This document shows, piece after piece, positions 1,152-37,988 of a stretch of 38,876 bases of DNA (within the stretch, counting starts at the first letter, position 1; each line of letters starts with the position of its first letter). The translations under genes were made by a program, and so were the position numbers. Location of the stretch: the IMG/VR virus record IMGVR_UViG_2526164597_000012. One strand, written 5' to 3'. Source of the stretch: a virus (Duplodnaviria; Heunggongvirae; Uroviricota; Caudoviricetes). The notes under the pieces were generated by a model. That model ran no database searches. It was not told the DNA's origin and saw only the letters and a program-made list of their open reading frames with translations.

Positions 1152-1724
1152 TTACATTTCAGGTTGCGTTATGACAGTCCCAACAGGGTGGTAGCGGTAG
1201 ATCGTTGACAGTCCAATATCATAGATAATTGCCAGCCGCTTTCTGTCATACCCTTTCTGGAGCAATCTTGCGATCTGCTCATGCTGCTCCTTCGTCAGTT
1301 TCGGGCGACGTCCTCCAACTCTCCCTTGTGCTCGCGCAGCAGCCAGTCCTGCCAGCGTGCGCTCAACTATCAGTTCACGCTCCATTTCTGCCAGTGCACC
1401 CATCATATGAAAAAAGAACCTTCCCATCGGAGTGCTGGTATCGATTGAATCCGTCAGACTGCGAAAATTGACACCTTTTGCGCGTAGCTCTTCTGTGAGA
1501 GCAATGAGGTGTTTCATTCTTCTACCCAACCGATCCAGCTTCCAGACCACCAATGTATCCCCTCTTTTAAGGCACTTTAAAGCGCGTTTCAGGCCTGGTC
1601 GTTCCGACTTGGTTCCGCTCATTTTGTCCTCAAAAATCTGTTCACATCCTGCGCACATTAATGCATTGCGTTGCAAATCTGTGTTTTGGTCATTTGTTGA
1701 CACACGTATGTAGCCAATCAGCAT
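1152..1724 (-). CDS. gin: Gin-family serine DNA invertase (190 aa)
   Basis: MLIGYIRVSTNDQNTDLQRNAL... with catalytic Ser region and C-terminal HTH; near-colinear with Mu Gin as recalled; RBS AAGGGAG 8 nt upstream of ATG at 1724; ORF-track entry 1152..1919 is an upstream extension. Confidence 0.9.
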   Translation of the reverse strand: MLIGYIRVSTNDQNTDLQRNALMCAGCEQIFEDKMSGTKSERPGLKRALKCLKRGDTLVVWKLDRLGRRMKHLIALTEELRAKGVNFRSLTDSIDTSTPMGRFFFHMMGALAEMERELIVERTLAGLAAARAQGRVGGRRPKLTKEQHEQIARLLQKGYDRKRLAIIYDIGLSTIYRYHPVGTVITQPEM

Positions 1725-1778
1725 TAAAAATACTCCCTTTTGAGTGGTTAAAGTACTGAGATAATGTGGGGAGGATTT

Positions 1779-1804
1779 GAGAGATAAACGTTGGTTTAGG
1801 GGAA
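1779..1804. other. Candidate gix-like crossover site A (..AAACG TT GGTTTAGGGGAA)
   Basis: Right half-site GGTTTAGGGGAA matches Mu gix half-site GGTTTACAGGAA (as recalled) at 10/12; sits at the 5' edge of the conserved cassette block, next to the gin promoter. Confidence 0.4.
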
Positions 1805-2299
1805 GGCTCGGCGCTGCCCGTTGGTGTGCCCGTTCCATGGCCCTCAGCCACACCGCCAACGGGGTGGCTGAAATGCAATGGTGCAGCATTTTCTTCTGAA
1901 ATGTATCCCAAACTGGCAAAAGCCTACCCCACCAATAAATTACCGGATTTACGGGGAGAATTTATTCGCGGTTGGGATGATGGGCGCGGGGTGGATGCTG
2001 GCCGCGCTTTGCTTAATTGGCAGCCACACACAATTTTGGATCATGCACACTATATGGAATTATGGACCGGGGATGGACTTGCCGCGGGAAGTACACGGGA
2101 AGGAGTAAACCCTGGAATACTGGCTACATACGGGGACGGGGGAATAGTTAAAACAGACGAACCCGGTTTAAATGTGCCTTCCTCACTACGAGCCGTTAGC
2201 TCTCGTAATGTAAAACGGTTTGGTGAAATTAGTGGAAATGTAGGTACAGAAACTCGCCCTCGCAACGTTGCATTTAATTACATCGTAAGAGCCGCATGA
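1781..2299 (+). CDS. Promoterless alternative tail-fibre C-terminal cassette A (Sv-like)
   Basis: Frame open from 1781; begins with the same ~65-aa block (NVGLGEGSALPVGVPVPWP..TPPTGWLKCNGAAFSSEMYP..RGEFIRGWDDGRG) found in the expressed tail fibre, then a unique segment, then conserved ETRPRNVAFNYIVRAA end. Confidence 0.7.
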   Translation, partial: EINVGLGEGSALPVGVPVPWPSATPPTGWLKCNGAAFSSEMYPKLAKAYPTNKLPDLRGEFIRGWDDGRGVDAGRALLNWQPHTILDHAHYMELWTGDGLAAGSTREGVNPGILATYGDGGIVKTDEPGLNVPSSLRAVSSRNVKRFGEISGNVGTETRPRNVAFNYIVRAA

Positions 2300-2768
2300 A
2301 AACGTTGGTTTGGGGGAAGGCTCTGCACTGCCCGTTGGTGTGCCTGTTCCATGGCCCTCAGCCACACCACCAACGGGCTGGCTGAAATGTAACGGTGCAG
2401 CATTTTCTTCTGAAATGTACCCAAATCTGGCAAAGGTTTACCCAACGTTAAAATTACCTGATTTACGCGGTGAGTTTATCCGTGGCTGGGATGATGGGCG
2501 CGGGGTGGATGCCGGAAGGGGCATCTTAAGCATGCAGGGGTGGTTAACAGGAAGTCATTATCATAATATTCGGTCATGGGATGCGTGGGATAACACGGTA
2601 CTGGTGCCAAATGACAAAAGAGGGGATAGTCTGTTGTCGACAGATAATGCCGTCCGGCAAGGTGCAATTAACGGTAGATTTACCAGTCAATACAGAACGG
2701 AATCCTCAGATGGGAATGAAAACCGCCCACGCAATATTGCCTTCAATTATATTGTGAGAACCGCATAA
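2289..2768 (+). CDS. Promoterless alternative tail-fibre C-terminal cassette B (Sv-like)
   Basis: Same conserved N-terminal block and C-terminal ENRPRNIAFNYIVRTA; unique middle; stop overlaps the tfa start (TAATGA). Confidence 0.7.
   Translation, partial: EPHENVGLGEGSALPVGVPVPWPSATPPTGWLKCNGAAFSSEMYPNLAKVYPTLKLPDLRGEFIRGWDDGRGVDAGRGILSMQGWLTGSHYHNIRSWDAWDNTVLVPNDKRGDSLLSTDNAVRQGAINGRFTSQYRTESSDGNENRPRNIAFNYIVRTA
2293..2318. other. Candidate gix-like crossover site B (..GAAAACG TT GGTTTGGGGGAA)
   Basis: Same half-site motif as site A at the equivalent position of cassette B. Confidence 0.4.
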
Positions 2769-3379
2769 TGAATAACGCGATATTAAATGATGACCTTATT
2801 GCCGTACAGGCAGGAAACATCGTCGTTTATAACTATGATGGTGAGACACGGGAATATATTTCCGAATCAACTGAATATCTTGCTGTGGGTGTTGGTATTC
2901 CGGCTAATTCCTGTTTAGATGCCCCAGGCGCACATAAATCTGGCTATGCTATTCGCCGTTCGGAGGATTTAAATTCATGGGAGTATGCGCCAGACCATCG
3001 TGGTGAAACCGTCTATAGCACTGACACGGGAAACACCGAAGAAATCACGGCGCTGGGTGACTACCCGAAAAATACAACCACTATCGCCCCGTTAACACCA
3101 TACGATAAATGGGATGGTGAAAAATGGGTGACAGATACTGAGGTACAACATCGTGCCGCAGTAGAAGCGGCAGAAACCAAGCGCCAGTCACTGGCTGATG
3201 CGGCAATGGATTCCATAAGTCTGATTCAGTTGAAGTTGCGGGCCGGGCGGAAGTTGACGCAGGCAGAAACCACCCGGCTTAATGCCGTGCTGGATTATAT
3301 AGACGCGCTGAACGCAATGGATATAAACATGGCACCAGATATCAACTTGCCGGAAATACCACTGGCATCAGCCAGTTGA
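2768..3379 (+). CDS. Tail fibre assembly protein (Tfa/U-like chaperone)
   Basis: 203 aa; immediately follows cassette B with overlapping stop/start; size, position and sequence style typical of Mu U / lambda Tfa family. Confidence 0.7.
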   Translation: MNNAILNDDLIAVQAGNIVVYNYDGETREYISESTEYLAVGVGIPANSCLDAPGAHKSGYAIRRSEDLNSWEYAPDHRGETVYSTDTGNTEEITALGDYPKNTTTIAPLTPYDKWDGEKWVTDTEVQHRAAVEAAETKRQSLADAAMDSISLIQLKLRAGRKLTQAETTRLNAVLDYIDALNAMDINMAPDINLPEIPLASAS

Positions 3380-3385
3380 ATATAA

Positions 3386-4687
3386 CTAAGCCGCCCTCAC
3401 GATATAGTTAAATGCAATATTGCGGGGGCGGGTTTCACTACCACCTGTGTTACCAATACTTCCTCGTGAATGAAGCGTTGGTGATGGAATCAAACTCCCT
3501 CCTGTATTTGTGGCATCAAGCCCCCTGCCTTGTGTATATGTTTTTTTGAAAATCGTAGCCAACTCCCATTCATCTTTTGTGTCATATCCATCGTTAGCTA
3601 CAACAATATGGCGATGTTTTTCCAACATCCCGTTTTGAATGCTCAATAAAGCGCGTGCCGCATCAATTCCTCGCCCATCATCCCAGCCACGGATAAATTC
3701 TCCGCGTAAATCCGGTAATTTATTGGTGGGGTAGGCTTTTGCCAGTTTGGGGTACATTTCAGAAGAAAATGCTGCACCGTTACATTTCAGCCAGCCCGTT
3801 GGTGGTGTTGCTAAGGGCCATGGAACAGGCACGCCAACGGGCAGTGCAGAACCTTCTCCTAAACCAAGGTAATTGAGGACTTCTTTTATACTGCCCATAG
3901 CGATAATAGCGCGACCAATAGCTGTAAGGGTTGTCAGTGCTGCGCGGTCTGCTCCGGTAAAATAAGGCAACCGATCTGCTGCAGTGGCAAGTCCTGCCAG
4001 AGCAGTGAGCGTGGCATCTGCCGGTTGTTTTCCGTTTGCCAGATCGTATGCAGCCTTGACCGCTTTCGGTGTGGCGGCCAGTATTTCAGACGTGCTGTTG
4101 ATGTCACTGCTCAATTGTACGGTGCCTTTTGCCGTCAGCGAGGCAGCAGGCACTCCCGTTATCTGACTCCACGGGTGAGTGTGGCTGACGGGCGCCTTGC
4201 CGGCTGCAAGGTCGTATGCAGCCTTGACCGCCTTCGGCGTGGCAGCCTCAGTTTCTGATTGACTGTCCGTGGCGCTGCTCAGTTGTACGGTGCCTTTTGC
4301 CGTCAGCGAGGCAGCAGGCACTCCCGTTATCTGACTCCACGGGTGAGTATGGCTGACGGGGGCCTTGCCGGCAGCCAGGTCATATGCAGCCTTGACGGCC
4401 TTTGGTGTGGCGGCCAGCGTTTCAGAGGTGCTGTTGGTGGCACTGCTCAGTTGGGTGAACCCCTTAGCTGTCAGTGTCGCGTCCGGGTGGTTACGGGAAC
4501 GTACGTGTTCAGCCAGTGACTGTGCGGCTTCCTCCGTTTTTTTCTTCAGCCATTTCGTCCTGTTTGCCAGTTGCCGGGGGGCTCGATTTGATATCCCGTC
4601 TGCACCACCCAGAACCGGATCTGATGTCTCCAGTTGATAGATATTTTCTTCCCACTTTTCTGTTTCATTCAGGTTTCCCATAATCAA
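3386..4687 (-). CDS. Tail fibre protein (S-like): constant N-terminal part + currently joined variable C-terminal cassette C
   Basis: 433 aa; internal tandem fibre repeats; C-terminal ~160 aa start with the conserved cassette block (LGLGEGSALPVGVPVPWP...) and end ETRPRNIAFNYIVRAA. Confidence 0.85.
   Translation of the reverse strand: MIMGNLNETEKWEENIYQLETSDPVLGGADGISNRAPRQLANRTKWLKKKTEEAAQSLAEHVRSRNHPDATLTAKGFTQLSSATNSTSETLAATPKAVKAAYDLAAGKAPVSHTHPWSQITGVPAASLTAKGTVQLSSATDSQSETEAATPKAVKAAYDLAAGKAPVSHTHPWSQITGVPAASLTAKGTVQLSSDINSTSEILAATPKAVKAAYDLANGKQPADATLTALAGLATAADRLPYFTGADRAALTTLTAIGRAIIAMGSIKEVLNYLGLGEGSALPVGVPVPWPLATPPTGWLKCNGAAFSSEMYPKLAKAYPTNKLPDLRGEFIRGWDDGRGIDAARALLSIQNGMLEKHRHIVVANDGYDTKDEWELATIFKKTYTQGRGLDATNTGGSLIPSPTLHSRGSIGNTGGSETRPRNIAFNYIVRAA
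3854..3879. other. Candidate gix-like crossover site C inside the tail-fibre gene (inverted relative to sites A and B)
   Basis: Minus-strand ..AATTACC TT GGTTTAGGAGAA at the constant/variable boundary (codons ~273-279). Confidence 0.4.
3960..4480. repeat. Tandem in-frame repeats (~168 bp / 56 aa, ~2.6 copies) within the tail-fibre gene
   Basis: Protein repeats LTAKG..QLSS..SE..AATPKAVKAAYDLA.GK.PVSHTHPWSQITGVPAAS; DNA copies near 4044, 4212, 4381; causes the repeated plus-strand shadow ORFs 4025..4258 and 4259..4519. Confidence 0.75.
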
Positions 4688-6358: not shown

Positions 6359-6696
6359 AGCAGCTCCTGAGTCCGGGTCTGTCCGTCTGAGCCTTTCCAG
6401 CTCACCCGGAGCGTAAGATGTTCGCCGTCGACGGCGGGTTTAACTGACATAAGCTGGCAGCGGGGCTCCCAGCGCCGGATGGCATCGACGGATTCGCGCA
6501 CCACATGCGGAATGGCCCGGTCTACAGGCCAGTCGATATAAAGATGCAGATTGCTGCCGAACTCCGGGCGATGCGGGTCGCTGCCGCGGGGAGTCCGCAG
6601 GATAATTTGAATCGCCTGCCGGATATCATCCAGCCCCCGGACAATTTCGCCGGGAGCCTGCAGGGTCGGTTGCCAGAATACTGAGGTTGTTTTCAT
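6349..6696 (-). CDS. Baseplate wedge protein, gpW/GP25-like (Mu gp46-like)
   Basis: 115 aa; conserved position and size. Confidence 0.6.
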   Translation of the reverse strand: MKTTSVFWQPTLQAPGEIVRGLDDIRQAIQIILRTPRGSDPHRPEFGSNLHLYIDWPVDRAIPHVVRESVDAIRRWEPRCQLMSVKPAVDGEHLTLRVSWKGSDGQTRTQELLWR

Positions 6697-6750
6697 GGGG
6701 GCAGTATTGCCCCCGTGCGGGAACGCTGATATTAAAGGCGTTTAAAAAGC

Positions 6751-9582: not shown

Positions 9583-12533
9583 CAGCGGTACTCCTTACGT
9601 TGTTTCTGAGCCAGCAGACGCTCCAGCATTTTTTCCAGCTCATGCAGACTCATATTCAGGGCACCAGTCAGTCCTGCAGGCGCTGTGGTTTCCCTGCCAT
9701 TGAGGAAAAACTGAGGATTAAAGCTGACCTGGATACCACCAGACGTTCCACCGCCGGTTGCAGCTGCACCACGGCCTGAATATCCGGCAGCCAGGATTTC
9801 AGGCGAGGGGATACGGGGAACATCCGGTGTCATCTCATTTGCCAGACGTTGCCCTGGTAAAATCGATGCCCGGGTGGAGAGCGGAATAGCGGGCATGGAA
9901 GACAAACTATTGATTACGGCTCCGATCGCATTTTTAGCAGACGACATAAACCCATTGATATCGGGCAACGGCATACTGAAGCGAACACCTGAAGTGTTAT
10001 CCCGTATTTCTGGCCCCTGGATGCTCACGGGCATTCTGGGGAGCAGTTCACTGGCCATTCGCTGCCCGGCCAGAGCTGCAAGCGGAGTGGTCCGCTGCAG
10101 GCCAATGGCGGCCCCCTGCGCGATATTGTCACCAAAGCCCATAAACACGCGGCTCGGCGAATGAATGCCCAGCTTTTCGCTGAACCAGCCACTGATGCTG
10201 TCACCCATTCCGGTTACACTGGATTTGAGCGACTCCCATTTGTTTTTGATACCGTTAATCAGACCATCGACAAGATGGCCACCGAAGTCGGTAAACTTTG
10301 CCGGCAGATCAACACCAAGATATTTCAGCGCAGCTGCAAAGGCTTTATAGAGCAGACCTGCCGGCGACCAGTTAATCAGCAGCTTACCAGTTCCCGCGAT
10401 ACCGCCGTTAAAGGCTTCCTGAATGTCAGCCCAGCACTGTTTAAACCAGCTACTGATGCTGTCACCCATTCCGGTTACACTGGATTTGAGCGACCCCCAT
10501 TTGTTTTTGATACCGTTAATCAGACCGTCGATAAGATGGCCACCGAAGTCGGTGAACTTTGCCGGCAGAGCAACGCCGAAATATTTCAGCGCAGCCGCAA
10601 AGGCTTTATAGAGCAGGCCTGCCGGCGACCAGTTAATCAGTAACTTACCAATTCCCACAATGCCGCCGTTAAAGGCTTCCTGAATGTCTGCCCAGCGCTG
10701 TTTAAACCAGCCACTGACTGCCCCCCAGTTGCGGTAGATAAGGTAAGCTGCTGCCGCGACAGCGGTGATAACGAGACCGATGGGATTCATCATCAGCGCA
10801 CGTCCAATCCAGAGAACAGCACGTCCGGCGAGCATAATTCCGCGAACCAGCCCCCCGGAGAGCACGCCACTCAGTGTTCTGGCTCCTCTGGCGACGGCGC
10901 TAAATCCGGTCACCAGCCAGCGGAGCTTACCGCCTTGCCCCAGTGCGAGCGACAGACGAAGCCAGTTGGCCCGAAGTAAAACAGCATTTTTCCAGACACT
11001 TACAAAGGGGGAAATAAGGAGATTCAGCCCCAGTTTGAGACCAACAGTCGCTATCTTAATCGCAAGGAGCGCACTGATGAGCTTAAAAGCCCCACTGACA
11101 AATTGCGGGTGAGTCGCTACCCAGTGTTTTGCCCCCTGAATGAGTGGAAGCAGTTCCTGAGTCAAAGAAATAAAAGATGGAGCTAATTGATCGCCCAGCG
11201 TAATTGCCAGATCGCGACTGCTGACCATAAGTGTTTTAGTGGCTTCAAGGGGAGATTTCAGCCGCTGATCATAAGCACTGGCAAGCAAATCGTTATCCGC
11301 AGCCCTGAGAGCACCGGCACGGATCTCTCGATATCTGTCCATGTTGGCCAGCATCGGGCGGATAAATGCCATGACCTGCATATCCGCGAACATATCGCCC
11401 AGACCAAAGTTTTTCGCCAGAGCCTGAAGTGCCTCATCTCTTGCCGTATCATTCTTTATTTTCATGGCTGATTTGAAGCCGGCCAGCGCTTCGGGGCTTT
11501 TGGCATTGAGGTAACGTTCTATAACACTCAACATCCCTTCAATCGGAGAGATCCCCGCAGCTTTATAACTCGCAATAGATCCCTGCAAATCAATACCCAG
11601 ATCAGCAAACTGTTTCTGAGTATCGCGGGCAAAAATTTTGGTAAGAAAGTTTTTAAAATTATTGGCTGCTTCGTCGGTGGAACCTGCACCGATTTTTGCT
11701 ATCTGGAGACTGGCCCCTATTTCAGCAACAGCCTCTTTTCCACTGGCAATACCCGCCATCATTGGGGCCAGGGACTGCATCCACTTGACCTGATCCGGGA
11801 TTTCAAATGACCCCTGGTCACCGGCATAAGCCATAATATTCTGAACGGCACCAAAATCTCTGGCCGCACCTTTCAGGGAGTTTTGCCAGACTGCGGCCAC
11901 TTTTGCCCAGTCCTGAGCAGACGTGCGTGTTGCCGTTGCCGCGCGGGCAATATCCGGCATCAGAAAACCGATATCTGACACATTATCAATATTGTCGCTG
12001 ATGAGTGAACCCACCGCCTCCTGCAGCTCATCCTGATACTGATTGTATTTAAGCGCCCAGCCTTTTATCTGTCCGGCAAGTGCATCCCGCGTTTTATTGT
12101 CATATTTTGCGGTGATCGACATATCAATCATTTTGTCCTGAAAAGACATGGACTGCTGAACGGCAGGGGAAACCGTATGATAAACAGTCTGTGCCATGCC
12201 ATACGCTTCAATCCCCTGACCATACAGCGCCATGCGGTTAGCTTTCAGCGCATCACTGGTAGCGGATGCCGCTGACAGACGGCGCTGCTGGCGCTCAATT
12301 TGCTCCATGGTGCGGCTTACCCGCAGCAGCTCGCTGTTGAGATGCTGCATCCGGGAAGAACCCAGTTGACCATAACGTTCTGTTGCACGGGTTAAAGCGT
12401 TCTGACGTTCCTGCAGGCGGCGTGAGGTATCGCTCAGGGAATCAAGCGCACGGCGGGTACCGCTCATTGCAGAACGGAATGTGCTACCAATCATCCCGCC
12501 GATAACAACGCCGACTGAAAACTGTCCCGACAT
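9582..12533 (-). CDS. Tail tape measure protein
   Basis: 983 aa, Ala/Gly/Leu-rich with hydrophobic stretches, downstream of frameshifted chaperone; RBS CCGGAGG. Confidence 0.85.
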   Translation of the reverse strand: MSGQFSVGVVIGGMIGSTFRSAMSGTRRALDSLSDTSRRLQERQNALTRATERYGQLGSSRMQHLNSELLRVSRTMEQIERQQRRLSAASATSDALKANRMALYGQGIEAYGMAQTVYHTVSPAVQQSMSFQDKMIDMSITAKYDNKTRDALAGQIKGWALKYNQYQDELQEAVGSLISDNIDNVSDIGFLMPDIARAATATRTSAQDWAKVAAVWQNSLKGAARDFGAVQNIMAYAGDQGSFEIPDQVKWMQSLAPMMAGIASGKEAVAEIGASLQIAKIGAGSTDEAANNFKNFLTKIFARDTQKQFADLGIDLQGSIASYKAAGISPIEGMLSVIERYLNAKSPEALAGFKSAMKIKNDTARDEALQALAKNFGLGDMFADMQVMAFIRPMLANMDRYREIRAGALRAADNDLLASAYDQRLKSPLEATKTLMVSSRDLAITLGDQLAPSFISLTQELLPLIQGAKHWVATHPQFVSGAFKLISALLAIKIATVGLKLGLNLLISPFVSVWKNAVLLRANWLRLSLALGQGGKLRWLVTGFSAVARGARTLSGVLSGGLVRGIMLAGRAVLWIGRALMMNPIGLVITAVAAAAYLIYRNWGAVSGWFKQRWADIQEAFNGGIVGIGKLLINWSPAGLLYKAFAAALKYFGVALPAKFTDFGGHLIDGLINGIKNKWGSLKSSVTGMGDSISSWFKQCWADIQEAFNGGIAGTGKLLINWSPAGLLYKAFAAALKYLGVDLPAKFTDFGGHLVDGLINGIKNKWESLKSSVTGMGDSISGWFSEKLGIHSPSRVFMGFGDNIAQGAAIGLQRTTPLAALAGQRMASELLPRMPVSIQGPEIRDNTSGVRFSMPLPDINGFMSSAKNAIGAVINSLSSMPAIPLSTRASILPGQRLANEMTPDVPRIPSPEILAAGYSGRGAAATGGGTSGGIQVSFNPQFFLNGRETTAPAGLTGALNMSLHELEKMLERLLAQKQRKEYR
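10165..10720. repeat. Tandem in-frame duplication (2 x 258 bp, plus the first ~30 bp of a third unit) inside the tape-measure gene
   Basis: Two near-identical 86-aa units (SWFKQ.WADIQEAFNGGI.G.GKLLINWSPAGLLYKAFAAALKY.GV.LPAKFTDFGGHL.DGLINGIKNKW.SLKSSVTGMGDSIS); mirrored by plus-strand shadow ORFs 10165..10350 and 10423..10611. Confidence 0.85.
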
Positions 12534-12866: not shown

Positions 12867-13026
12867 TCAGCGGTTCGTCCCAGTCTGCCGGGTTTTTGCT
12901 GATTTTGCGCACCTGCTTCAGGTCTTTTACCGTCAGGCGTTTCAGTTCAACCAGCTCAATTCTGGTGCCTGCAGCAGTGGTGAAGGGATAAGACAATTTA
13001 AAAGTATCGGATGGGGTCTGTGACAT
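12691..13026 (-). CDS. Tail assembly chaperone (G-like), upstream frame
   Basis: 111 aa directly upstream of tape measure; RBS CAGGAG; paired with an overlapping frame as in conserved tail-chaperone frameshift genes. Confidence 0.7.
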   Translation of the reverse strand: MSQTPSDTFKLSYPFTTAAGTRIELVELKRLTVKDLKQVRKISKNPADWDEPLIARSTGLLPEDLDNMDLADYLQLQKRFQLITGMGESNQGADAGAGAAGEMVPVSAGGD

Positions 13027-13090
13027 GATTGTGCTCCTGTGTAAGTTCAGGGCAGTATGTCGGGAGAAGCGCGTGACGGATATTAAAGGA

Positions 13091-13117
13091 GATTAAGAAG
13101 AAGGGGCCGGAGCCCCT
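13091..13117 (-). terminator. Rho-independent terminator-like hairpin after the 93-aa ORF
   Basis: Minus-strand AGGGGC-TCCG-GCCCCT followed by TCTTCTTAATCTCC. Confidence 0.45.
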
Positions 13118-13123
13118 GTGATG

Positions 13124-16508: not shown

Positions 16509-16847
16509 TCACACCCCGCGCAGGATACGAATGACGTCGCCTTCACCCCCGGCTTCATCAAGTGCAATACCACAGGATTTACCGTCGCCGGACTGCGGCA
16601 CGGCTCTGGCCTGAGCATCTGACTGAACAGCCACACCACGGCTGACAGCGGCCCCGGCCTCGACAGCAATAATGCCCAGAACGCTCACCGGCGTGCTGTC
16701 GCCGGTAACAGCATCCACTTCGGCAACCCCGAGCGCTGCGGCACCGGCTTTACAGGGGGTATTATCTGCCCCGACAAAACGCTGCTGTGCCAGTGCTGCC
16801 CCTGCCGTTACGGTTGTGATCAGAATGACCTGCTGAGTGGTTCCCAT
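16509..16847 (-). CDS. Hypothetical Ala/Gly-rich head protein (possible decoration/stabilisation protein)
   Basis: 112 aa immediately downstream of major capsid gene. Confidence 0.45.
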   Translation of the reverse strand: MGTTQQVILITTVTAGAALAQQRFVGADNTPCKAGAAALGVAEVDAVTGDSTPVSVLGIIAVEAGAAVSRGVAVQSDAQARAVPQSGDGKSCGIALDEAGGEGDVIRILRGV

Positions 16848-17824: not shown

Positions 17825-18940
17825 TTACAGGCAGCGTGCGACAGCAGCCTCATAGCTGATGCCTTCTTTTTTGGACAGGGCCACTGCTTTCTGATGCAGG
17901 GCCAGACGCTCAGGATCGGCTTCCGCAAACTCTGCCACATCCACCTTCACCGTGTCGCCGACACGCTCTTTTGTGGCCTGTTCGGCGAAATTCATCACCG
18001 GCTCCCCGTCGGAGAGCAATGAACGAAAGGCGGTGGCCAGCGGTGTGCTGCTTTCCCCCTCAGCAAACTCCACCGGCTTGTCGCCACCGGCAACGGCATC
18101 CAGCAGGGCAACCACCACGGAGGAGGCGCGGGGAGCCAGACGGCCCTCTGCGACCAGTTTTTCTGCAAAGGCCACATTGTCCTTATGCAGTTGCTCCTGT
18201 CTGACCTGTGCATCACGCGCATCGCGATCAGCAGCCTGCTGCTTCAGGCGGCGGTTCTCCTCCTGAAGGGCTTCAATCTCTTCTTTTGTCATCGATGATT
18301 CCTCGTTACTTGCGGAAGACGGCCCCGGGCCTGTCTCACTGAATTGTGCACCTGCTGCATCCTGCGACAGTGTGTCGCGGTACGCCTCTTCGCGCAGACT
18401 GTTGAGCTGCCATTCCGGCAGGACTTTTTCTGCCTCGTCCAGACTGAAGCGGGCGATCAGAAAATCGCGCAGCTTTCCCCACAGGGAGGCATTCGTGATG
18501 GCCTGCCAGTCGGCGAACTCCACCACACCTTCTTCCTGCTCACTGAAGGACACCTGTTTCAGCCCCTTGACGGAAGGTGGCTGTGCCCCGAGAAAGCCCA
18601 CATGGCGAAGGTAGAGCACGCCGGGCTTCGGATTGGACGGTGAATCCGGGAGGTAGAAAGAGGCGGACACTTTTTTGAATCGTCCGTCGGTGACCATCTC
18701 AGCAAACTGCGGGTCCAGCTGGGCAGGCTCTGCCATCAGATCGACGCCGCTGAGCGACAGGGCTTTCACCCAGCCCCACGCCGGGTCTTCCGTTCTGGGA
18801 TGACCAATCACGAGTGGTGCTTCATGGACGGACGGGTCATAGGCTTTCACGCAGGCGGCAAGATCGTCTGGCGTGAACGGCAGTTTTTTGCCGTGCATAT
18901 CGGTATGAGTACCGGCTTTAAAAATGTGAATGGCTGACAT
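17825..18940 (-). CDS. Head maturation protease / scaffold (Mu I-like)
   Basis: 371 aa with acidic coiled-coil C-terminal half (..EEIEALQEENRRLKQQAADRDARDAQVRQEQL..) typical of scaffold domains; preceded by a promoter-like region. Confidence 0.7.
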   Translation of the reverse strand: MSAIHIFKAGTHTDMHGKKLPFTPDDLAACVKAYDPSVHEAPLVIGHPRTEDPAWGWVKALSLSGVDLMAEPAQLDPQFAEMVTDGRFKKVSASFYLPDSPSNPKPGVLYLRHVGFLGAQPPSVKGLKQVSFSEQEEGVVEFADWQAITNASLWGKLRDFLIARFSLDEAEKVLPEWQLNSLREEAYRDTLSQDAAGAQFSETGPGPSSASNEESSMTKEEIEALQEENRRLKQQAADRDARDAQVRQEQLHKDNVAFAEKLVAEGRLAPRASSVVVALLDAVAGGDKPVEFAEGESSTPLATAFRSLLSDGEPVMNFAEQATKERVGDTVKVDVAEFAEADPERLALHQKAVALSKKEGISYEAAVARCL

Positions 18941-18964
18941 TTTGCTGTCCCGCGTTATGTTGTC

Positions 18965-19004
18965 GGAGACAGTTTGTGAGAAATGCAGGCCCGGCGATTT
19001 TAAT
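18965..19004 (-). promoter_or_regulatory. Late-operon promoter/leader motif, copy 2 (upstream of protease/scaffold gene)
   Basis: Minus strand ATTAAAATC-N6-CCTGCATTT-N8-CTGTCTCC; near-identical tripartite motif upstream of the holin-like gene. Confidence 0.5.
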
Positions 19005-19065: not shown

Positions 19066-19108
19066 TATAAAACAGAGGCTGTAAAGCCTTTATAAAGGTA
19101 ATACAGCC
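19066..19108 (-). terminator. Rho-independent terminator-like structure after gene G
   Basis: Minus-strand GGCTGTA...(inner palindrome CCTTTATAAAGG)...TACAGCC followed by TCTGTTTTAT. Confidence 0.45.
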
Positions 19109-19154: not shown

Positions 19155-19613
19155 TCAGCGACGGGCCGCTGATTCAAGATGGCGGACAATGGTATCGAGG
19201 ATGGGGATTACCACTTCAGGCTGTAGTTCTCCATCCCCCGTCACCGGCAGGAACGGGCGGGCCGGAAGTTCAACAGACTCATTACGCCCCGTTTTACCCC
19301 CGAACTGGTGAATGGCACCGTAAACAACGTTGGTCCCCACAACAGCCTGCCGGTCGTCATGGTCGGTTGATACTGACCCCATCAGACGCCCGGTATCCTG
19401 CAGTGTCTGCCCGTCACGTTCTTCCGCTGCCAGCGAGGGCATCCACCCCGGACGCCCCTCATCAAGAAAGTTAAACTGTGTTTCCGCCAGCAGGGTTCCG
19501 GCGATTTTGCGCATCGCGGGCTCCAGGTCTGTGGCAGCAAGATCCAGCGCACGGAGGCTCCGGCGCAGGGATTTATCGTTAATGGTGATACTGACCAGGT
19601 TATCGGAAGCCAT
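19155..19613 (-). CDS. Virion morphogenesis protein (Mu G-like)
   Basis: 152 aa, conserved position after F-like gene. Confidence 0.6.
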   Translation of the reverse strand: MASDNLVSITINDKSLRRSLRALDLAATDLEPAMRKIAGTLLAETQFNFLDEGRPGWMPSLAAEERDGQTLQDTGRLMGSVSTDHDDRQAVVGTNVVYGAIHQFGGKTGRNESVELPARPFLPVTGDGELQPEVVIPILDTIVRHLESAARR

Positions 19614-26061: not shown

Positions 26062-26412
26062 TTAAAGCCCCATCGCAACAGCCAGGCAGACCGCTGCAAC
26101 AATCAGTGCACGGCGGATTAACGCAGCAGAAAACACCAGGTGAAGGCCGGTCTGTACCGGGAAACGCCCTTCAGCCATCAGCCTGTCGTCATGTTTCAGG
26201 TACTGACCGGGACGGGCTTTGGGGAAGAGCGAACGGTCAAGCCAGTAACCCAGCACTGCTGCCAGCGTGATGAGTGCCAGCTTGTAGATCACAACAGGCA
26301 GCTGCTGTGGTGAGACCAGAGCGATGGTGCCCAGCAACAGCACTGAGGTCAGCAGCCAGCCGCTGAGGCGAGGTTTTTTAACAGGGGGAATGAATTTTTT
26401 CAGGTTTTTCAT
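26062..26412 (-). CDS. Holin-like small membrane protein (first gene of late/lysis operon)
   Basis: 116 aa from ATG 26412 (RBS GGAGAC), 2-3 predicted TM segments; directly upstream of endolysin. Confidence 0.5.
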   Translation of the reverse strand: MKNLKKFIPPVKKPRLSGWLLTSVLLLGTIALVSPQQLPVVIYKLALITLAAVLGYWLDRSLFPKARPGQYLKHDDRLMAEGRFPVQTGLHLVFSAALIRRALIVAAVCLAVAMGL

Positions 26413-26431
26413 GTGTGTCTCCTTATCTGGT

Positions 26432-26471
26432 GGAGACAGCATCACAAATACAGGGCGCGAAGGATTTTAAA
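26432..26471 (-). promoter_or_regulatory. Late-operon promoter/leader motif, copy 1 (upstream of holin-like gene)
   Basis: Minus strand TTTAAAATC-N8-CCTGTATTT-N6-CTGTCTCC, then ACCAGATAA-GGAGAC so that CTGTCTCC can pair with the SD region. Confidence 0.5.
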
Positions 26472-26542
26472 GCGCGTTAAGAGAGCCGGGGATACGGGAT
26501 GTGCAGGATAAACGATGAATTATTCACAGAGGAGAATACGAT

Positions 26543-27271
26543 ATGACGCAGACACTGAATCCGGTCATCACTGTCACCGTGTCCGGTCCTGTGGGCAGCG
26601 GTAAAAGTTACATATTGGCGCGAATAGAGGAAGTGGTGAAACAGGAATTCGGAAACAGCGTCATTGTCGACGCCGCAGACGTGGACGGTGAGCGCCGTAT
26701 GAGTGGGGATGATCTGAGCACATGGCAGAAACCACGGGCTGGCACAGTGATCAGGCTGGAGGAATACACGGGACAGGGCCTGTTGTCATACGGCGAGGAG
26801 CGTATCTGTCGGACGAATGAGCTGCTGGATGTTATATGCCCCACGGGCCGGCAACCCTGGATACTGCCCGATGCACTGCATGCCACCATTGCGGCACTGA
26901 TGACAGTTTACGATCAGGAGCTGCTCATGAAGGAGTTACGTAAACTCACTGGTCAGTCAACAGAATGTTGTTCGTCCCCGAAGTACGGCAAACAGGAACA
27001 CATCCCGATTAACCAGCCTCCCCGGTTCTTCGACGAATACCTTCTGACACCGGAAAATAAAGCTGAGCATGAAGAGATCAAAGCGGCGTTGTTCCGGGAA
27101 ATCAGGAAGATTGCTGAAATGCAACTGGAGGGCGGGCTGGACAGAGTGATGGCGAGAGGAGAATGGGCATCGCTGTTTGAAAGAGTTTCCCCGGAATTAC
27201 TTCCCCTCGCACTGGCTATCGGGATTATGCAGACAGCGGATAAACCTCACTTACGTTCATTAAACACGTAA
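26543..27271 (+). CDS. Accessory P-loop (Walker A GPVGSGKS) protein, function unknown
   Basis: 242 aa; RBS GAGGAG 8 nt upstream; Walker A at residues 15-22 followed closely by hhhhD (VIVDAADVD); diverges from the late operon, outside the conserved Mu-like core. Confidence 0.6.
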   Translation: MTQTLNPVITVTVSGPVGSGKSYILARIEEVVKQEFGNSVIVDAADVDGERRMSGDDLSTWQKPRAGTVIRLEEYTGQGLLSYGEERICRTNELLDVICPTGRQPWILPDALHATIAALMTVYDQELLMKELRKLTGQSTECCSSPKYGKQEHIPINQPPRFFDEYLLTPENKAEHEEIKAALFREIRKIAEMQLEGGLDRVMARGEWASLFERVSPELLPLALAIGIMQTADKPHLRSLNT

Positions 27272-27651
27272 CGCATAATCCGGGATACGCATTCAGCGAT
27301 GACTGCATTTTCACCGGTTTTTACTGCATCCAGAAGTGACTCTTTAAATGGTACGGGCCGGGGCTGCAGAAAGGTCGGCATGGCATTGAGCAGACAGAGC
27401 GTTTTTTCCGTGAGGACGACATCAGCCGCTCCCACAGCCAGCAACTGAGAGTAACGAATATAGCTGTTATCCCGAAGCCATATCAGCGTATCAATAAAAC
27501 ACCGGCACTTTTTCTGGTCGTGATCAACCTGGTCCGGGATATCGAAAAAACCAGAATAAATCAAAACCTGAGGTGCCGGATGCGTGTTCAGTAATCGGCA
27601 GAATATTTTGCCGGTGAGTACATAAAAATCATCATTTAAGGAGTGCATCAT
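27247..27651 (-). CDS. Hypothetical protein (134 aa), antisense gene inside the accessory island
   Basis: Fills the 380-bp gap between two plus-strand genes; tandem ATG ATG start; start codon overlaps the divergent start of 27650..27865; no family recognised. Confidence 0.35.
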   Translation of the reverse strand: MMHSLNDDFYVLTGKIFCRLLNTHPAPQVLIYSGFFDIPDQVDHDQKKCRCFIDTLIWLRDNSYIRYSQLLAVGAADVVLTEKTLCLLNAMPTFLQPRPVPFKESLLDAVKTGENAVIAECVSRIMRYVFNERK

Positions 27652-27865
27652 GAATCCCCGATTAACGTTAACAGAACATCAGCGCCGTGCTGAAGCAGTG
27701 AACAATGTTCTGGAAGATATTATCCGGTTATACCGCGGAGAACTGAGTGTCTGTCGTGCCGCTTTTCATTTTCAGGGAATACAAAAGCAGTTTGATACTT
27801 CTGTTTTTGCAGAAGGTATTACTTATGCCCTGGACCGGATAAGGTCAGAAAATCGCCCCGGATAA
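27650..27865 (+). CDS. Hypothetical small protein (71 aa)
   Basis: Strong RBS AAGGAG 6 nt upstream of ATG; no family recognised. Confidence 0.5.
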   Translation: MNPRLTLTEHQRRAEAVNNVLEDIIRLYRGELSVCRAAFHFQGIQKQFDTSVFAEGITYALDRIRSENRPG

Positions 27866-27919
27866 TCCCTAAACCACATTAACAGAAATCCCGCCATCCC
27901 TGCCGCATCATGAAAGAAC

Positions 27920-27951
27920 GACCAGCCCGGCACCCGAAAGCCGGGCTGGTC
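27920..27951. promoter_or_regulatory. Perfect 12-bp stem / 8-nt loop hairpin in the intergenic region before the methyltransferase gene
   Basis: GACCAGCCCGGC-ACCCGAAA-GCCGGGCTGGTC; no clear U-tract on either strand. Confidence 0.5.
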
Positions 27952-28055
27952 ATCGCCCCACAGGAATGCGCTGTGAGCCGACCAAGGTTCAGTCAGTCTC
28001 GCGAGACCTGACCAGACTGCCATATTTTTTAATAATTGTAAAAGGCTTACAGATT

Positions 28056-28936: not shown

Positions 28937-29293
28937 TCAGCCTGCGATTTTTCCTGGTTTTGGCTGAGTATAGAATCGCCCAATCTCAAGAAATGAGCGT
29001 TGTTGGTCTGGTGTCATGTCGTCAAAAGTATCTATTAGTTTTTGTTTTTCTGGGGAAATTTGATTCTGGTTTCTAGTCATACCATCTGTGCTCATTCCAG
29101 TGAGCAACCAATTTACATCAACATTAAACTCTTGATGCATCTTTAACAGAAACTCCCCTCCAGGCATCGCCTTTCCATTTTCAATCTGACTGATACCACC
29201 ATTAGAAATACCTAAACGAGCTGCAAATTCTCTCTGGTTCAACCCTGCTTTCTTCCTCACAGAAATAACGCGCTCTCCTATATCTTTGCTCAT
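28937..29293 (-). CDS. Prophage repressor, XRE-family HTH (c-like)
   Basis: 118 aa; N-terminal HTH ..KKAGLNQREFAARLGISNGGISQIENG..; divergent from the early operon with an operator palindrome between them. Confidence 0.8.
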   Translation of the reverse strand: MSKDIGERVISVRKKAGLNQREFAARLGISNGGISQIENGKAMPGGEFLLKMHQEFNVDVNWLLTGMSTDGMTRNQNQISPEKQKLIDTFDDMTPDQQRSFLEIGRFYTQPKPGKIAG

Positions 29294-29575: not shown

Positions 29576-29621
29576 ATATTTTGAGTCTTTGTAAAAGGTT
29601 ATCACATATCGCAAAAGAGGT

Positions 29622-37177: not shown

Positions 37178-37627
37178 ATGCAGAAAAAACGCCTGATACA
37201 GCTTATCCATATTGCCCGTAATGAACTGGGTATGGATGAAGACACCTACCGCCAGATGTTACAGGGGCTGACCGGTAAAGCCTCAACCAAAGGAATGGAT
37301 ACCACACAACTAAACTGCGTGCTGGAATCCATGAAAAAGAAAGGCTTTCGCGTTAAACCAGCCAGAAAAGCCAGCTCCGGTTTACCGCTGGATAACCATC
37401 CGCAGTCCAGGAAAATTCGTGCGCTATGGCTTGAAATGGCTGCTGCCGGCATTGTTCGTGACCGTTCAGAAAATGCATTAGCGAGGTGGATCAAGCGGGA
37501 AACGGGCATCAGCGCCCTGCGCTGGCTCAGTACTGAACAGGCAAGCAGTGTTATTGAGAAACTGAAGAAGTGGCAGCGCAGAGCTGCGGGAGTCAAACAT
37601 GAGCGACCTGAATCAGTTTCGAAGTAA
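37178..37627 (+). CDS. gemA: GemA-like regulatory protein (Mu gp16 family)
   Basis: 149 aa; N-terminal ..KRLIQLIHIARNELGMDEDTYR.. resembles Mu GemA; located just upstream of mor. Confidence 0.65.
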   Translation: MQKKRLIQLIHIARNELGMDEDTYRQMLQGLTGKASTKGMDTTQLNCVLESMKKKGFRVKPARKASSGLPLDNHPQSRKIRALWLEMAAAGIVRDRSENALARWIKRETGISALRWLSTEQASSVIEKLKKWQRRAAGVKHERPESVSK

Positions 37628-37988
37628 GGGGCCGGAACTCCTGGTGGAACTGGCACAGCATACCTCTGAGACCGTTCGCGAGATTATTGATATTGAGCCC
37701 GAAGTTGCCGACCAGATTGGTCAGGCCGTCGCGAACCGAATGATGCAGGTCTGGGGCGGGCAAAACGTTTATTTCCCGATGGGCATGGTATGGAAGGTCA
37801 GTCAGCGCGACCGGGAAATCTTCAGGGAGTTTAACGGACGCAACCACCACGAACTGGCCCGCAAATTTGGTGTTTCGCTTCAGTGGGTCTACAGCGTGGT
37901 TAAGCGGGTAAGAAAAGAAGAACTGGATCGGATGCAGGGCAAGCTATTTGCTGATGAACCCGATGCAGATACGGAGAAAAAAGAGTAA
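37599..37988 (+). CDS. mor: Mor/C-family transcriptional activator (middle/late gene activator)
   Basis: 129 aa; C-terminal ..FNGRNHHELARKFGVSLQWVYSVVKRVRK.. matches Mor/C HTH region (Mu Mor ..FNGRNVSELTTRYGVTFNTVYKAIRRMRR.. as recalled). Confidence 0.8.
   Translation: MSDLNQFRSKGPELLVELAQHTSETVREIIDIEPEVADQIGQAVANRMMQVWGGQNVYFPMGMVWKVSQRDREIFREFNGRNHHELARKFGVSLQWVYSVVKRVRKEELDRMQGKLFADEPDADTEKKE

Follow-up and report, generated by a model that had tools for sequence, protein, structure and literature searches.

Late promoters of a BcepMu-like transposable prophage probably belong to the Mor/C-dependent class of phage Mu

The window analyzed here, a 38,876-nt stretch of viral DNA (Caudoviricetes; IMG/VR record IMGVR_UViG_2526164597_000012), is a BcepMu-like transposable prophage with 99.5-99.9% identity to Escherichia phage PhiKM (genus Bcepmuvirus). 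It carries two copies of a 40-nt motif, one ahead of the protease/scaffold gene and one ahead of the holin gene, which are very probably the core of two Mor-dependent late promoters. The argument is built on a promoter architecture of exact geometry, on its conservation and recurrence at homologous genes in distant relatives, and on its match to the Mu middle promoter Pm.

The motif was first noticed in a sequence-only reading of the window, which described three shared boxes (A, B and C) on the minus strand: ATTAAAATC-gccggg-CCTGCATTT-ctcacaaa-CTGTCTCC at 19004..18965, with gaps of 6 and 8 nt, and TTTAAAATC-cttcgcgc-CCTGTATTT-gtgatg-CTGTCTCC at 26471..26432, with gaps of 8 and 6 nt. Both copies lie where that reading placed them, and CTGTCTCC occurs at these two places and nowhere else on either strand of the window. 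The gapped pattern TTAAAATC-N5-9-CCTGYATTT-N5-9-CTGTCTCC likewise matches at exactly two places and gives 0 matches in 100 dinucleotide-preserving shuffles, a pattern derived from the same data; stronger and independent evidence comes from block conservation in relatives and from weight-matrix finds.

The earlier proposal that the motif is a binding site and promoter for a Mor/C-family activator stands, in that the copies are best read as activator-dependent promoters, but the three-box anatomy is wrong. At all four late-arm sites that we recognize, the layout is a 16-bp dyad n(C/T)TAA-N6-TTAAn, 22 nt, a hexamer nAnnCT, 6 nt and a purine (Table 1). Box A holds only the promoter-proximal arm of the dyad, the distal TTAA or CTAA lying 10 bp further upstream, and box C comprises the final two bases of the -10 hexamer together with the discriminator. 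Box B is mostly variable spacer and was rejected as a conserved element: KP12 and other relatives replace CCTG, and of CCTGYATTT a short T-run alone persists. This T-run resembles the T-tracts that Mu Pm, Plys, PP and Pmom carry in their spacers and may have a functional role. The hexamers GATGCT, CAAACT, CATACT and AATACT all keep A2 and T6, and each of the four discriminators consists of G and pyrimidines. A scan for canonical sigma-70 -35/-10 elements returned no pair at any of these promoter sites. If transcription starts 7 or 8 nt past the hexamer, as predicted, the dyad is centered at -42.5 or -43.5.

This layout matches that of Mu Pm. The dyad of Mu Pm lies at -51..-36, centered at -43.5; its 5-bp inverted repeats enclose six G/C-rich nucleotides, and the promoter lacks a -35 hexamer (PMC4287176, PMC4390567). 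In the four C-dependent late promoters of Mu, too, an imperfect dyad of 16 bp is placed at -43.5 and a -10 but no -35 is present (PMC2582627). The Mu Pm sequence (AF083977) reads AGTAA-AGCCGG-TTAAT, 22 nt, TATCCT, and the protease site (TCTAA-AGCAGA-TTAAA) resembles it in a 16-bp dyad of near-identical sequence, with 5-bp arms and a G/C-rich 6-bp spacer, in the 22 nt from dyad to -10 and in the lack of a -35. In both systems a terminator hairpin abuts or overlaps such a site (here that of the tail-chaperone gene; in Mu, the early terminator at Pm). The hexamers of the C-dependent promoters are TAGACT, CAAACT, TATCCT and TAAGAT, and that of PI, CAAACT, is the same as at our protease site. Further likenesses to this group are a weak -10 ending in CT and followed by G (TAGACTG, CAAACTG), T-runs in the spacer, and the presence of four to five units, located at corresponding genes (for lysis, protease/scaffold I, tail/baseplate and DNA modification). 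In Mu, too, the G-I gap holds a terminator and then PI. The suggestion of separate late operons, as with Plys and PI, is supported: the two copies would head units at the gene positions of those two Mu promoters.

The two systems also differ. Mu C sites have TTAT/ATAAC instead of TAA/TTA, and their distance to the hexamer is 23 nt; the Mu tail promoter is inside N, upstream of P, whereas the tail promoters here are at the E-like and W genes; and the modification unit is com-mom in Mu and Dam, the counterpart of C-dependent mom, in this prophage. In Mu, Mor acts on a single middle promoter to produce C, which in turn drives the late promoters. In this prophage all late units appear to be under the direct control of a single Mor-like protein, with no middle stage.

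Homologous regions were gathered from ~140 viral and genomic contigs. Ahead of the holin gene, conservation is confined to the blocks (T/A)TAAC-GCnn-TTTAAAATCC and CATTTGTGATGCTGTCTCC, between which the sequence varies freely (cttcgcgccctgt, gtatcccgccac, ctttcccccgac, cctttaatagac); ahead of the protease gene the corresponding blocks are TTCTAAAGCAGATTAAAA(T/G)C and CA(A/G/C)ACTGTC(T/C)CC, with TATTGT in the register of the hexamer in relative L006. Over all four promoter families the entropy is ~0.17 bits in the dyad arms, 0.06-0.63 in the hexamer and 0.7-1.2 in the 22-nt spacer, the length of which is constant. This build recurs in BcepMu, phiE255, and phages of Ralstonia, Pasteurella and Pseudomonas, again at lysis, protease, E-like and W genes, and the dyad n(C/T)TAA-N6-TTAAn occurs in 22 instances from six lineages. 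Examples are GCTAA-AGCCGA-TTAAA + 22 + CAAGAT at the BcepMu holin site, CGTAA-AGCCGA-TTAAA at the BcepMu protease gene, and AGTAA-AGCGGA-TTAAA + 22 + CAACAT at the Ralstonia protease site, where AGTAAAGCGGATTAAA matches the Mor site of Mu Pm at 13/16 positions. Complete genomes have four strong matches each, and two matches (a Pseudomonas lysis cassette and a Pasteurella amidase gene) fall outside the training set.

The search for further copies that the sequence-only reading had proposed was productive. With a weight matrix trained on the holin and protease families alone, a site before the tail-chaperone (E-like) gene (13046..13100, score 13.9) ranks third and one before the baseplate W-like gene (6695..6749, 10.0) fourth in the window; the next match scores -0.1, and the third-best match in 200 Markov shuffles never exceeded -1.1. 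The first two copies do lie in the two largest non-coding gaps of the late arm, as had been observed, but these are not its only promoter-bearing gaps, the smaller ones at 13027..13123 and 6697..6750 carrying copies three and four. The E-like site consists of CTTAA-TCTCCT-TTAAT (13097..13082), 22 nt, CATACT (13059..13054) and GCCCTG, with a predicted start at about A13047. The W site consists of TTTAA-ACGCCT-TTAAT (6746..6731), 22 nt, AATACT (6708..6703), GCCCCC and A6696; its hexamer is flanked by the inverted repeat GGGGC/GCCCC, A6696 is the A of the W-gene ATG, and a Shine-Dalgarno (SD) sequence is absent. Both sites are strongly conserved in relatives and, as elsewhere, combine conserved elements with a variable spacer. 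A dyad-like match at 1537..1580 (minus strand) has a background score and lies within the coding sequence of the invertase gene, and we treated it as chance.

A fifth copy probably precedes the Dam methylase gene on the plus strand: CCTAA-ACCACA-TTAAC, 22 nt, CATCAT (27906..27911) and a predicted start near 27918. With the pan-family matrix that detects it, the only other elevated score outside the sites (13.6) is the holin dyad read on the plus strand, and unrelated background reaches at most 7.7. In those relatives whose Dam and holin genes diverge directly, Dam is served by the holin dyad in the opposite orientation, with the same leader sequence, and the dyad thus appears to work in both directions. 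In the window it lies, on the plus strand, 22 nt upstream of CAGGAT (26504..26509), ahead of a divergent P-loop gene that it may drive late. This brings the predicted late promoters to at least four, all in the late arm, and probably to five with that of Dam.

We propose the following scheme. On the minus strand, the late genes extend from the holin gene (ATG 26412) as far as the tail fiber gene (~3386). The plus strand carries the early operon, which begins at ~29387 and ends with a gene at 37599..37988, whose product is the single Mor/C-family homologue within the window (~30% identity to Mu Mor, 32-37% to Mu C). This activator, the product of the last early gene, would bind as a dimer to the 16-bp dyad (arms of 5 bp, n(C/T)TAA and TTAAn, and a 6-bp mostly G/C-rich spacer), which would take the place of the missing -35 element with its center near -43. 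It would recruit host sigma-70 RNA polymerase to the weak -10 (nAnnCT) exactly 22 nt downstream of the dyad, so that transcription would start 7-8 nt past the hexamer. The holin/lysis operon would then begin at about A26431 and the protease/scaffold (head) operon at about G18964. The three like-built promoters would serve the tail-chaperone and tape-measure genes, the genes from baseplate W to the tail fiber, and Dam. Activator binding, Mor dependence and start sites are predictions from the architecture described above. The -10 assignment is supported by the W gene, which has no SD and, in six lineages, an ATG 6-8 nt past the hexamer.

Several points weigh against this scheme. The hexamers GATGCT and CAAACT are weak, and in this prophage TAAAAT inside box A is a better match to a -10. 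The exact spacing in the table of 22 instances is partly by construction, that table having been built with a geometry filter, which leaves the unfiltered family alignments and the out-of-sample matches unaffected. In the only public differential RNA sequencing (dRNA-seq) data for a BcepMu lysogen, Burkholderia cenocepacia J2315, no start is seen at the predicted late sites; because late promoters are expected to be silent in a repressed prophage, these data give no positive support and are no direct test. The BcepMu starts reported there lie only upstream of gp20 (21 and 54 nt, just ahead of the holin promoter) and inside gp48.

The sequence-only reading had also observed that CTGTCTCC is complementary to the downstream SD region, which holds at both copies and in every relative examined: it pairs with GGAGACA (26422..26416) and GGGACAG (18951..18945) in 7-bp stems of -10.2 and -10.7 kcal/mol (z = -2.7 and -2.3). 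The pairing is retained in 100% of cells across 13 holin-type and 8 protease-type sequences, but all changes are one-sided G-U, which falls short of a statistical proof. A protein operator of fixed spacing (CTGTCTCC...GGAGACA) is an unlikely explanation, as the loop is 9 nt at the holin site and ~14 nt at the protease site, and other lineages use different arms and positions; an Rfam scan of the whole window returned no family. The Mu geometry puts the start immediately after CTGTCTCC. The 5' arm (-8..-1) would then fall outside the leader of the promoter's own transcript, so that the hairpin would form only in RNA reading through from upstream; on these predicted starts, the earlier idea of a leader hairpin that gates translation finds no support.

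Inverted repeats surround the -10 and the start at nearly every promoter of the family, with sequences that differ and compensatory changes between lineages. Some flank the hexamer, as at the W gene (GGGGC-AATACT-GCCCC, GCGGC-AACATG-GCCGC and CCCTG-TAATAT-CAGGG) and at the holin gene (ATGCCGTC-CAAGAT-GACGGCAT versus ATGCCGCC-CAAGAT-GGCGGCAT). Others link the discriminator to the SD, and at the Pasteurella E-like gene a perfect 13-bp repeat is followed by U7. Mu PI has CTGCTC...GAGCAG in the same position. When the region from 14 nt before the hexamer to 9 nt past the start was folded, the mean z was -2.46 for 22 instances versus +0.05 for 18 other late-gene starts. In the read-through context, the unpaired probability of the translation-initiation region was 0.30 for the four promoter-proximal genes versus 0.48 for 24 other late genes (p = 0.006), and in the predicted own transcripts the same regions reach 0.45-0.93.

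One possible reading, which we hold tentatively as an addition to the promoter scheme, is that an arm upstream of +1 (CTGTCTCC here, others elsewhere) occludes the SD and AUG, or flanks the -10, only in read-through RNA, so that the first gene would be translated only from transcripts of its own promoter. At every site and in every lineage examined, the predicted +1 falls downstream of the 5' arm; the greater structure and lower accessibility of promoter-proximal starts in the read-through context, the compensatory substitution of whole arms between lineages, the equivalent repeat at Mu PI and the start sites mapped just upstream of the holin promoter in the BcepMu lysogen all point the same way. 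Against it, close relatives show no double compensatory change, and a covariation test on them was uninformative, column shuffles scoring the same; the inverted repeat at the BcepMu holin gene barely reaches its SD; and the benefit for internal operons is unclear, with starts that are predicted.

It could also be, with a likelihood that we likewise place short of even, that the complementarity has no function at the RNA level and arises as a side effect: a discriminator rich in pyrimidines (G, then C or T) would be a promoter feature and would inevitably pair with a purine-rich SD. The composition of all four discriminators fits this, CTCC/GGAG pairing is expected near any SD, and the lack of a covariation signal in close relatives is in its favor. 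It leaves unexplained the perfect 8- and 13-bp inverted repeats that flank or overlap the -10 in other lineages, their compensatory changes, and the extra structure relative to other late-gene starts. Alternatively, the inverted repeats may be a property of the promoter DNA.

Some first genes are predicted to be leaderless. Across six lineages the W gene lacks an SD, and the first start codon available to it is an ATG 6-8 nt past the hexamer; it is thus predicted to be translatable only as a leaderless mRNA from this promoter, and the same prediction is made for the protease gene of BcepMu, phiE255 and the Ralstonia phage. In BcepMu (L148, 18850..18864), the annotated start of gp32 (protease) at 18850 falls inside the predicted -10 GATGAT, and alignment with homologues (MNAKPLHIF...) favors ATG 18862. 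The true start appears to lie downstream of the annotated one, and ATG 18862 would be leaderless. The lambda cI transcript from PRM is a leaderless phage mRNA. The genes here resemble it in an AUG at the predicted +1, without an SD and always as ATG (W in six lineages; the protease gene in Burkholderia and Ralstonia phages), and differ in being late structural genes with predicted 5' ends.

Taken to its full extent, the proposal would be that each Mor-dependent late promoter is built so that only its own transcripts translate the first gene, either because an arm in the -10/discriminator occludes the ribosome-binding site or because a -10-flanking stem abuts the AUG in read-through RNA, with several first genes leaderless (W everywhere; the protease gene in Burkholderia and Ralstonia phages). 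We regard this general form as rather unlikely; if true, translation would depend on which promoter is used at the internal operon boundaries of a phage late region. The transposase genes of IS10 and IS50 are reportedly shielded from outside transcription by fold-back inhibition of read-through transcripts. There, as in the geometry predicted here, an arm upstream of the gene's own start pairs with the ribosome-binding site only in transcripts from outside; the present case differs in that the arms overlap the -10 and discriminator of an activator-dependent promoter, at internal operon boundaries of a phage, and is a prediction from sequence.

The gating hairpin of the sequence-only reading would require a start upstream of CTGTCTCC, for example with TAAAAT of box A as the -10, placing boxes B and C in a leader of ~55 nt that regulates its own mRNA. 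TAAAAT matches the -10 consensus at 5/6 positions, the leader hairpins fold at -10 to -17 kcal/mol, with longer folds pairing box B with the start-codon region, and the pairing is kept throughout the relatives. However, the essential last T is missing in most relatives, which read TAAAAG, TAAGAG or TAACAG at this position; there is no conservation upstream of the distal TTAA, where the activator site would then be needed; the Mu Pm geometry fits exactly with the downstream hexamer as the -10; and for the W gene that hexamer is the only route to a translatable mRNA. We rejected TAAAAT as the -10 on the first two of these grounds and consider such a leader highly improbable. That the motif is a chance resemblance or a mobile repeat without regulatory role has its shortness in favor and nothing beyond that, and is practically ruled out by the empty shuffles and by conservation, in fixed geometry, at orthologous positions from Enterobacteria to Burkholderia.

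The Mor-dependent promoter scheme, then, would make these sites new members of the Mu Mor/C promoter class within a one-activator cascade, with a recurrent, unexplained structure around their starts. It would define the late regulon of an E. coli prophage type found in 637/5,426 complete Escherichia coli genomes, and of the wider BcepMu-like group, in which one Mor-type protein with Pm-like sites appears to replace the Mor-then-C relay of Mu. We found no published description of BcepMu-like late promoters or of leaderless Mu-like genes in the searchable literature. Standard predictors miss these promoters, and misannotated start codons are likely, BcepMu gp32 being an example.

Table 1. Coordinates in the window of the predicted promoter elements and associated features
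Feature	Position	Strand	Basis or remark
Protease/scaffold site: dyad TCTAA-AGCAGA-TTAAA	18999..19014	-	Predicted Mor-type activator site; conserved in relatives
Protease/scaffold site: spacer, 22 nt	18977..18998	-	Fixed length, variable sequence; holds box B (18989..18981)
Protease/scaffold site: -10 hexamer CAAACT	18971..18976	-	Same as the Mu PI -10
Protease/scaffold site: discriminator GTCTCC	18965..18970	-	Predicted +1 G18964 or A18963, from Mu Pm geometry and family-wide table
Protease/scaffold site: SD region GGGACAG (3' partner of CTGTCTC) and ATG (18940..18938) of protease/scaffold gene	18938..18951	-	Sequence, folding
Holin/lysis site: dyad CTTAA-CGCGCT-TTAAA	26466..26481	-	Conserved in relatives
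Holin/lysis site: -10 hexamer GATGCT, preceded by TGT (extended -10)	26438..26443	-	Spacer 26465..26444, 22 nt, holds box B
Holin/lysis site: discriminator GTCTCC	26432..26437	-	Predicted +1 A26431
Holin/lysis site: GGAGACA (SD, 3' partner of TGTCTCC) and ATG (26412..26410) of holin gene	26410..26422	-	Pfam Holin_2-3
Third copy, before tail-chaperone (E-like) gene (ATG at 13026)	13047..13097	-	Matrix; conserved in relatives
Terminator-like GC-rich hairpin AGGGGCTCCGGCCCCT, then TCTTCTT; abuts the dyad of the third copy	13102..13117	-	Top-ranked terminator-like site; conserved in relatives
Fourth copy, before baseplate W-like gene, in a 54-nt gap	6696..6746	-	Matrix; conserved in relatives
Probable fifth copy, before Dam methylase gene (27966)	27868..27918	+	Pan-family matrix score 22.6; conserved
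Terminator-like hairpin GGCTGTA...TACAGCC, then T-run, in the G-I gap	19067..19108 (stem 19108..19077)	-	Sequence, pattern scan
Mor/C-family activator gene	37599..37988	+	Pfam Mor PF08765, E = 1.3e-43; last gene of the early arm

The protease/scaffold copy follows a terminator-like hairpin, as had been pointed out, and a T-rich run comes after the stem. With its GC-containing stem and U-run the hairpin is a predicted intrinsic terminator; a pattern scan called its inner portion (19089..19076) and, in addition, another hairpin at 19172..19155. The loop contains a palindrome, CCTTTATAAAGG(CTTTAC), of which CCTTTATAAAGG spans 19098..19087. Although their proteins are only ~40-50% identical, phages of E. 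coli, Symbiopectobacterium, Burkholderia, Ralstonia and Pseudomonas share the palindrome core TTTATAAAGG, and this conserved loop suggests that the hairpin may have a role beyond termination. The G-I gap is at the center of the phage genome, the location of the strong gyrase site in Mu. On the plus strand, 28026..28054 and 29579..29607 each hold a copy of TTGTAAAAGG(C/T)T(T)A(T)CA, similar to the G-I core TATAAAGGCTTTACAG, a match that may be chance. In the G-I gap of Pasteurella phage AFS-2018a (L150, ~16700..16790), about five TTTAAAG(C) repeats resembling half-sites are spaced by ~11 bp upstream of the protease promoter and may be extra activator sites.

The predicted Dam leader holds a 12-bp stem-loop, GACCAGCCCGGC...GCCGGGCTGGTC (27920..27951, plus strand), that is kept in relatives with compensatory differences (for example GCCTGCCG...CGGCAGGC in L006) and may recall the translational control of Mu mom by Com. 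Relative to other members of the group, this prophage has a cassette inserted between the holin promoter and Dam, comprising the P-loop protein gene (26543..27271) and open reading frames (ORFs) at 27247..27651 (minus strand) and 27650..27865.

Klebsiella phage KP12 is ~87-90% identical to the window. A divergent ORF of 118 aa facing the early operon (28937..29293, minus strand) is HTH_3 and CI-repressor-like and is likely the prophage repressor; it is without annotation in the near-identical PhiKM record. The tape-measure gene contains a tandem 261-nt duplication, 93% identical (10183..10704), and the tail-fiber gene three 168-nt repeats (4029..4474). At 1152..3386 the invertase gene adjoins a tail-fiber segment that is apparently invertible, the opposite strand carrying alternative C-terminal and assembly genes, and repeats in this region (1786..2001 versus 2300..2515) are 88% identical.

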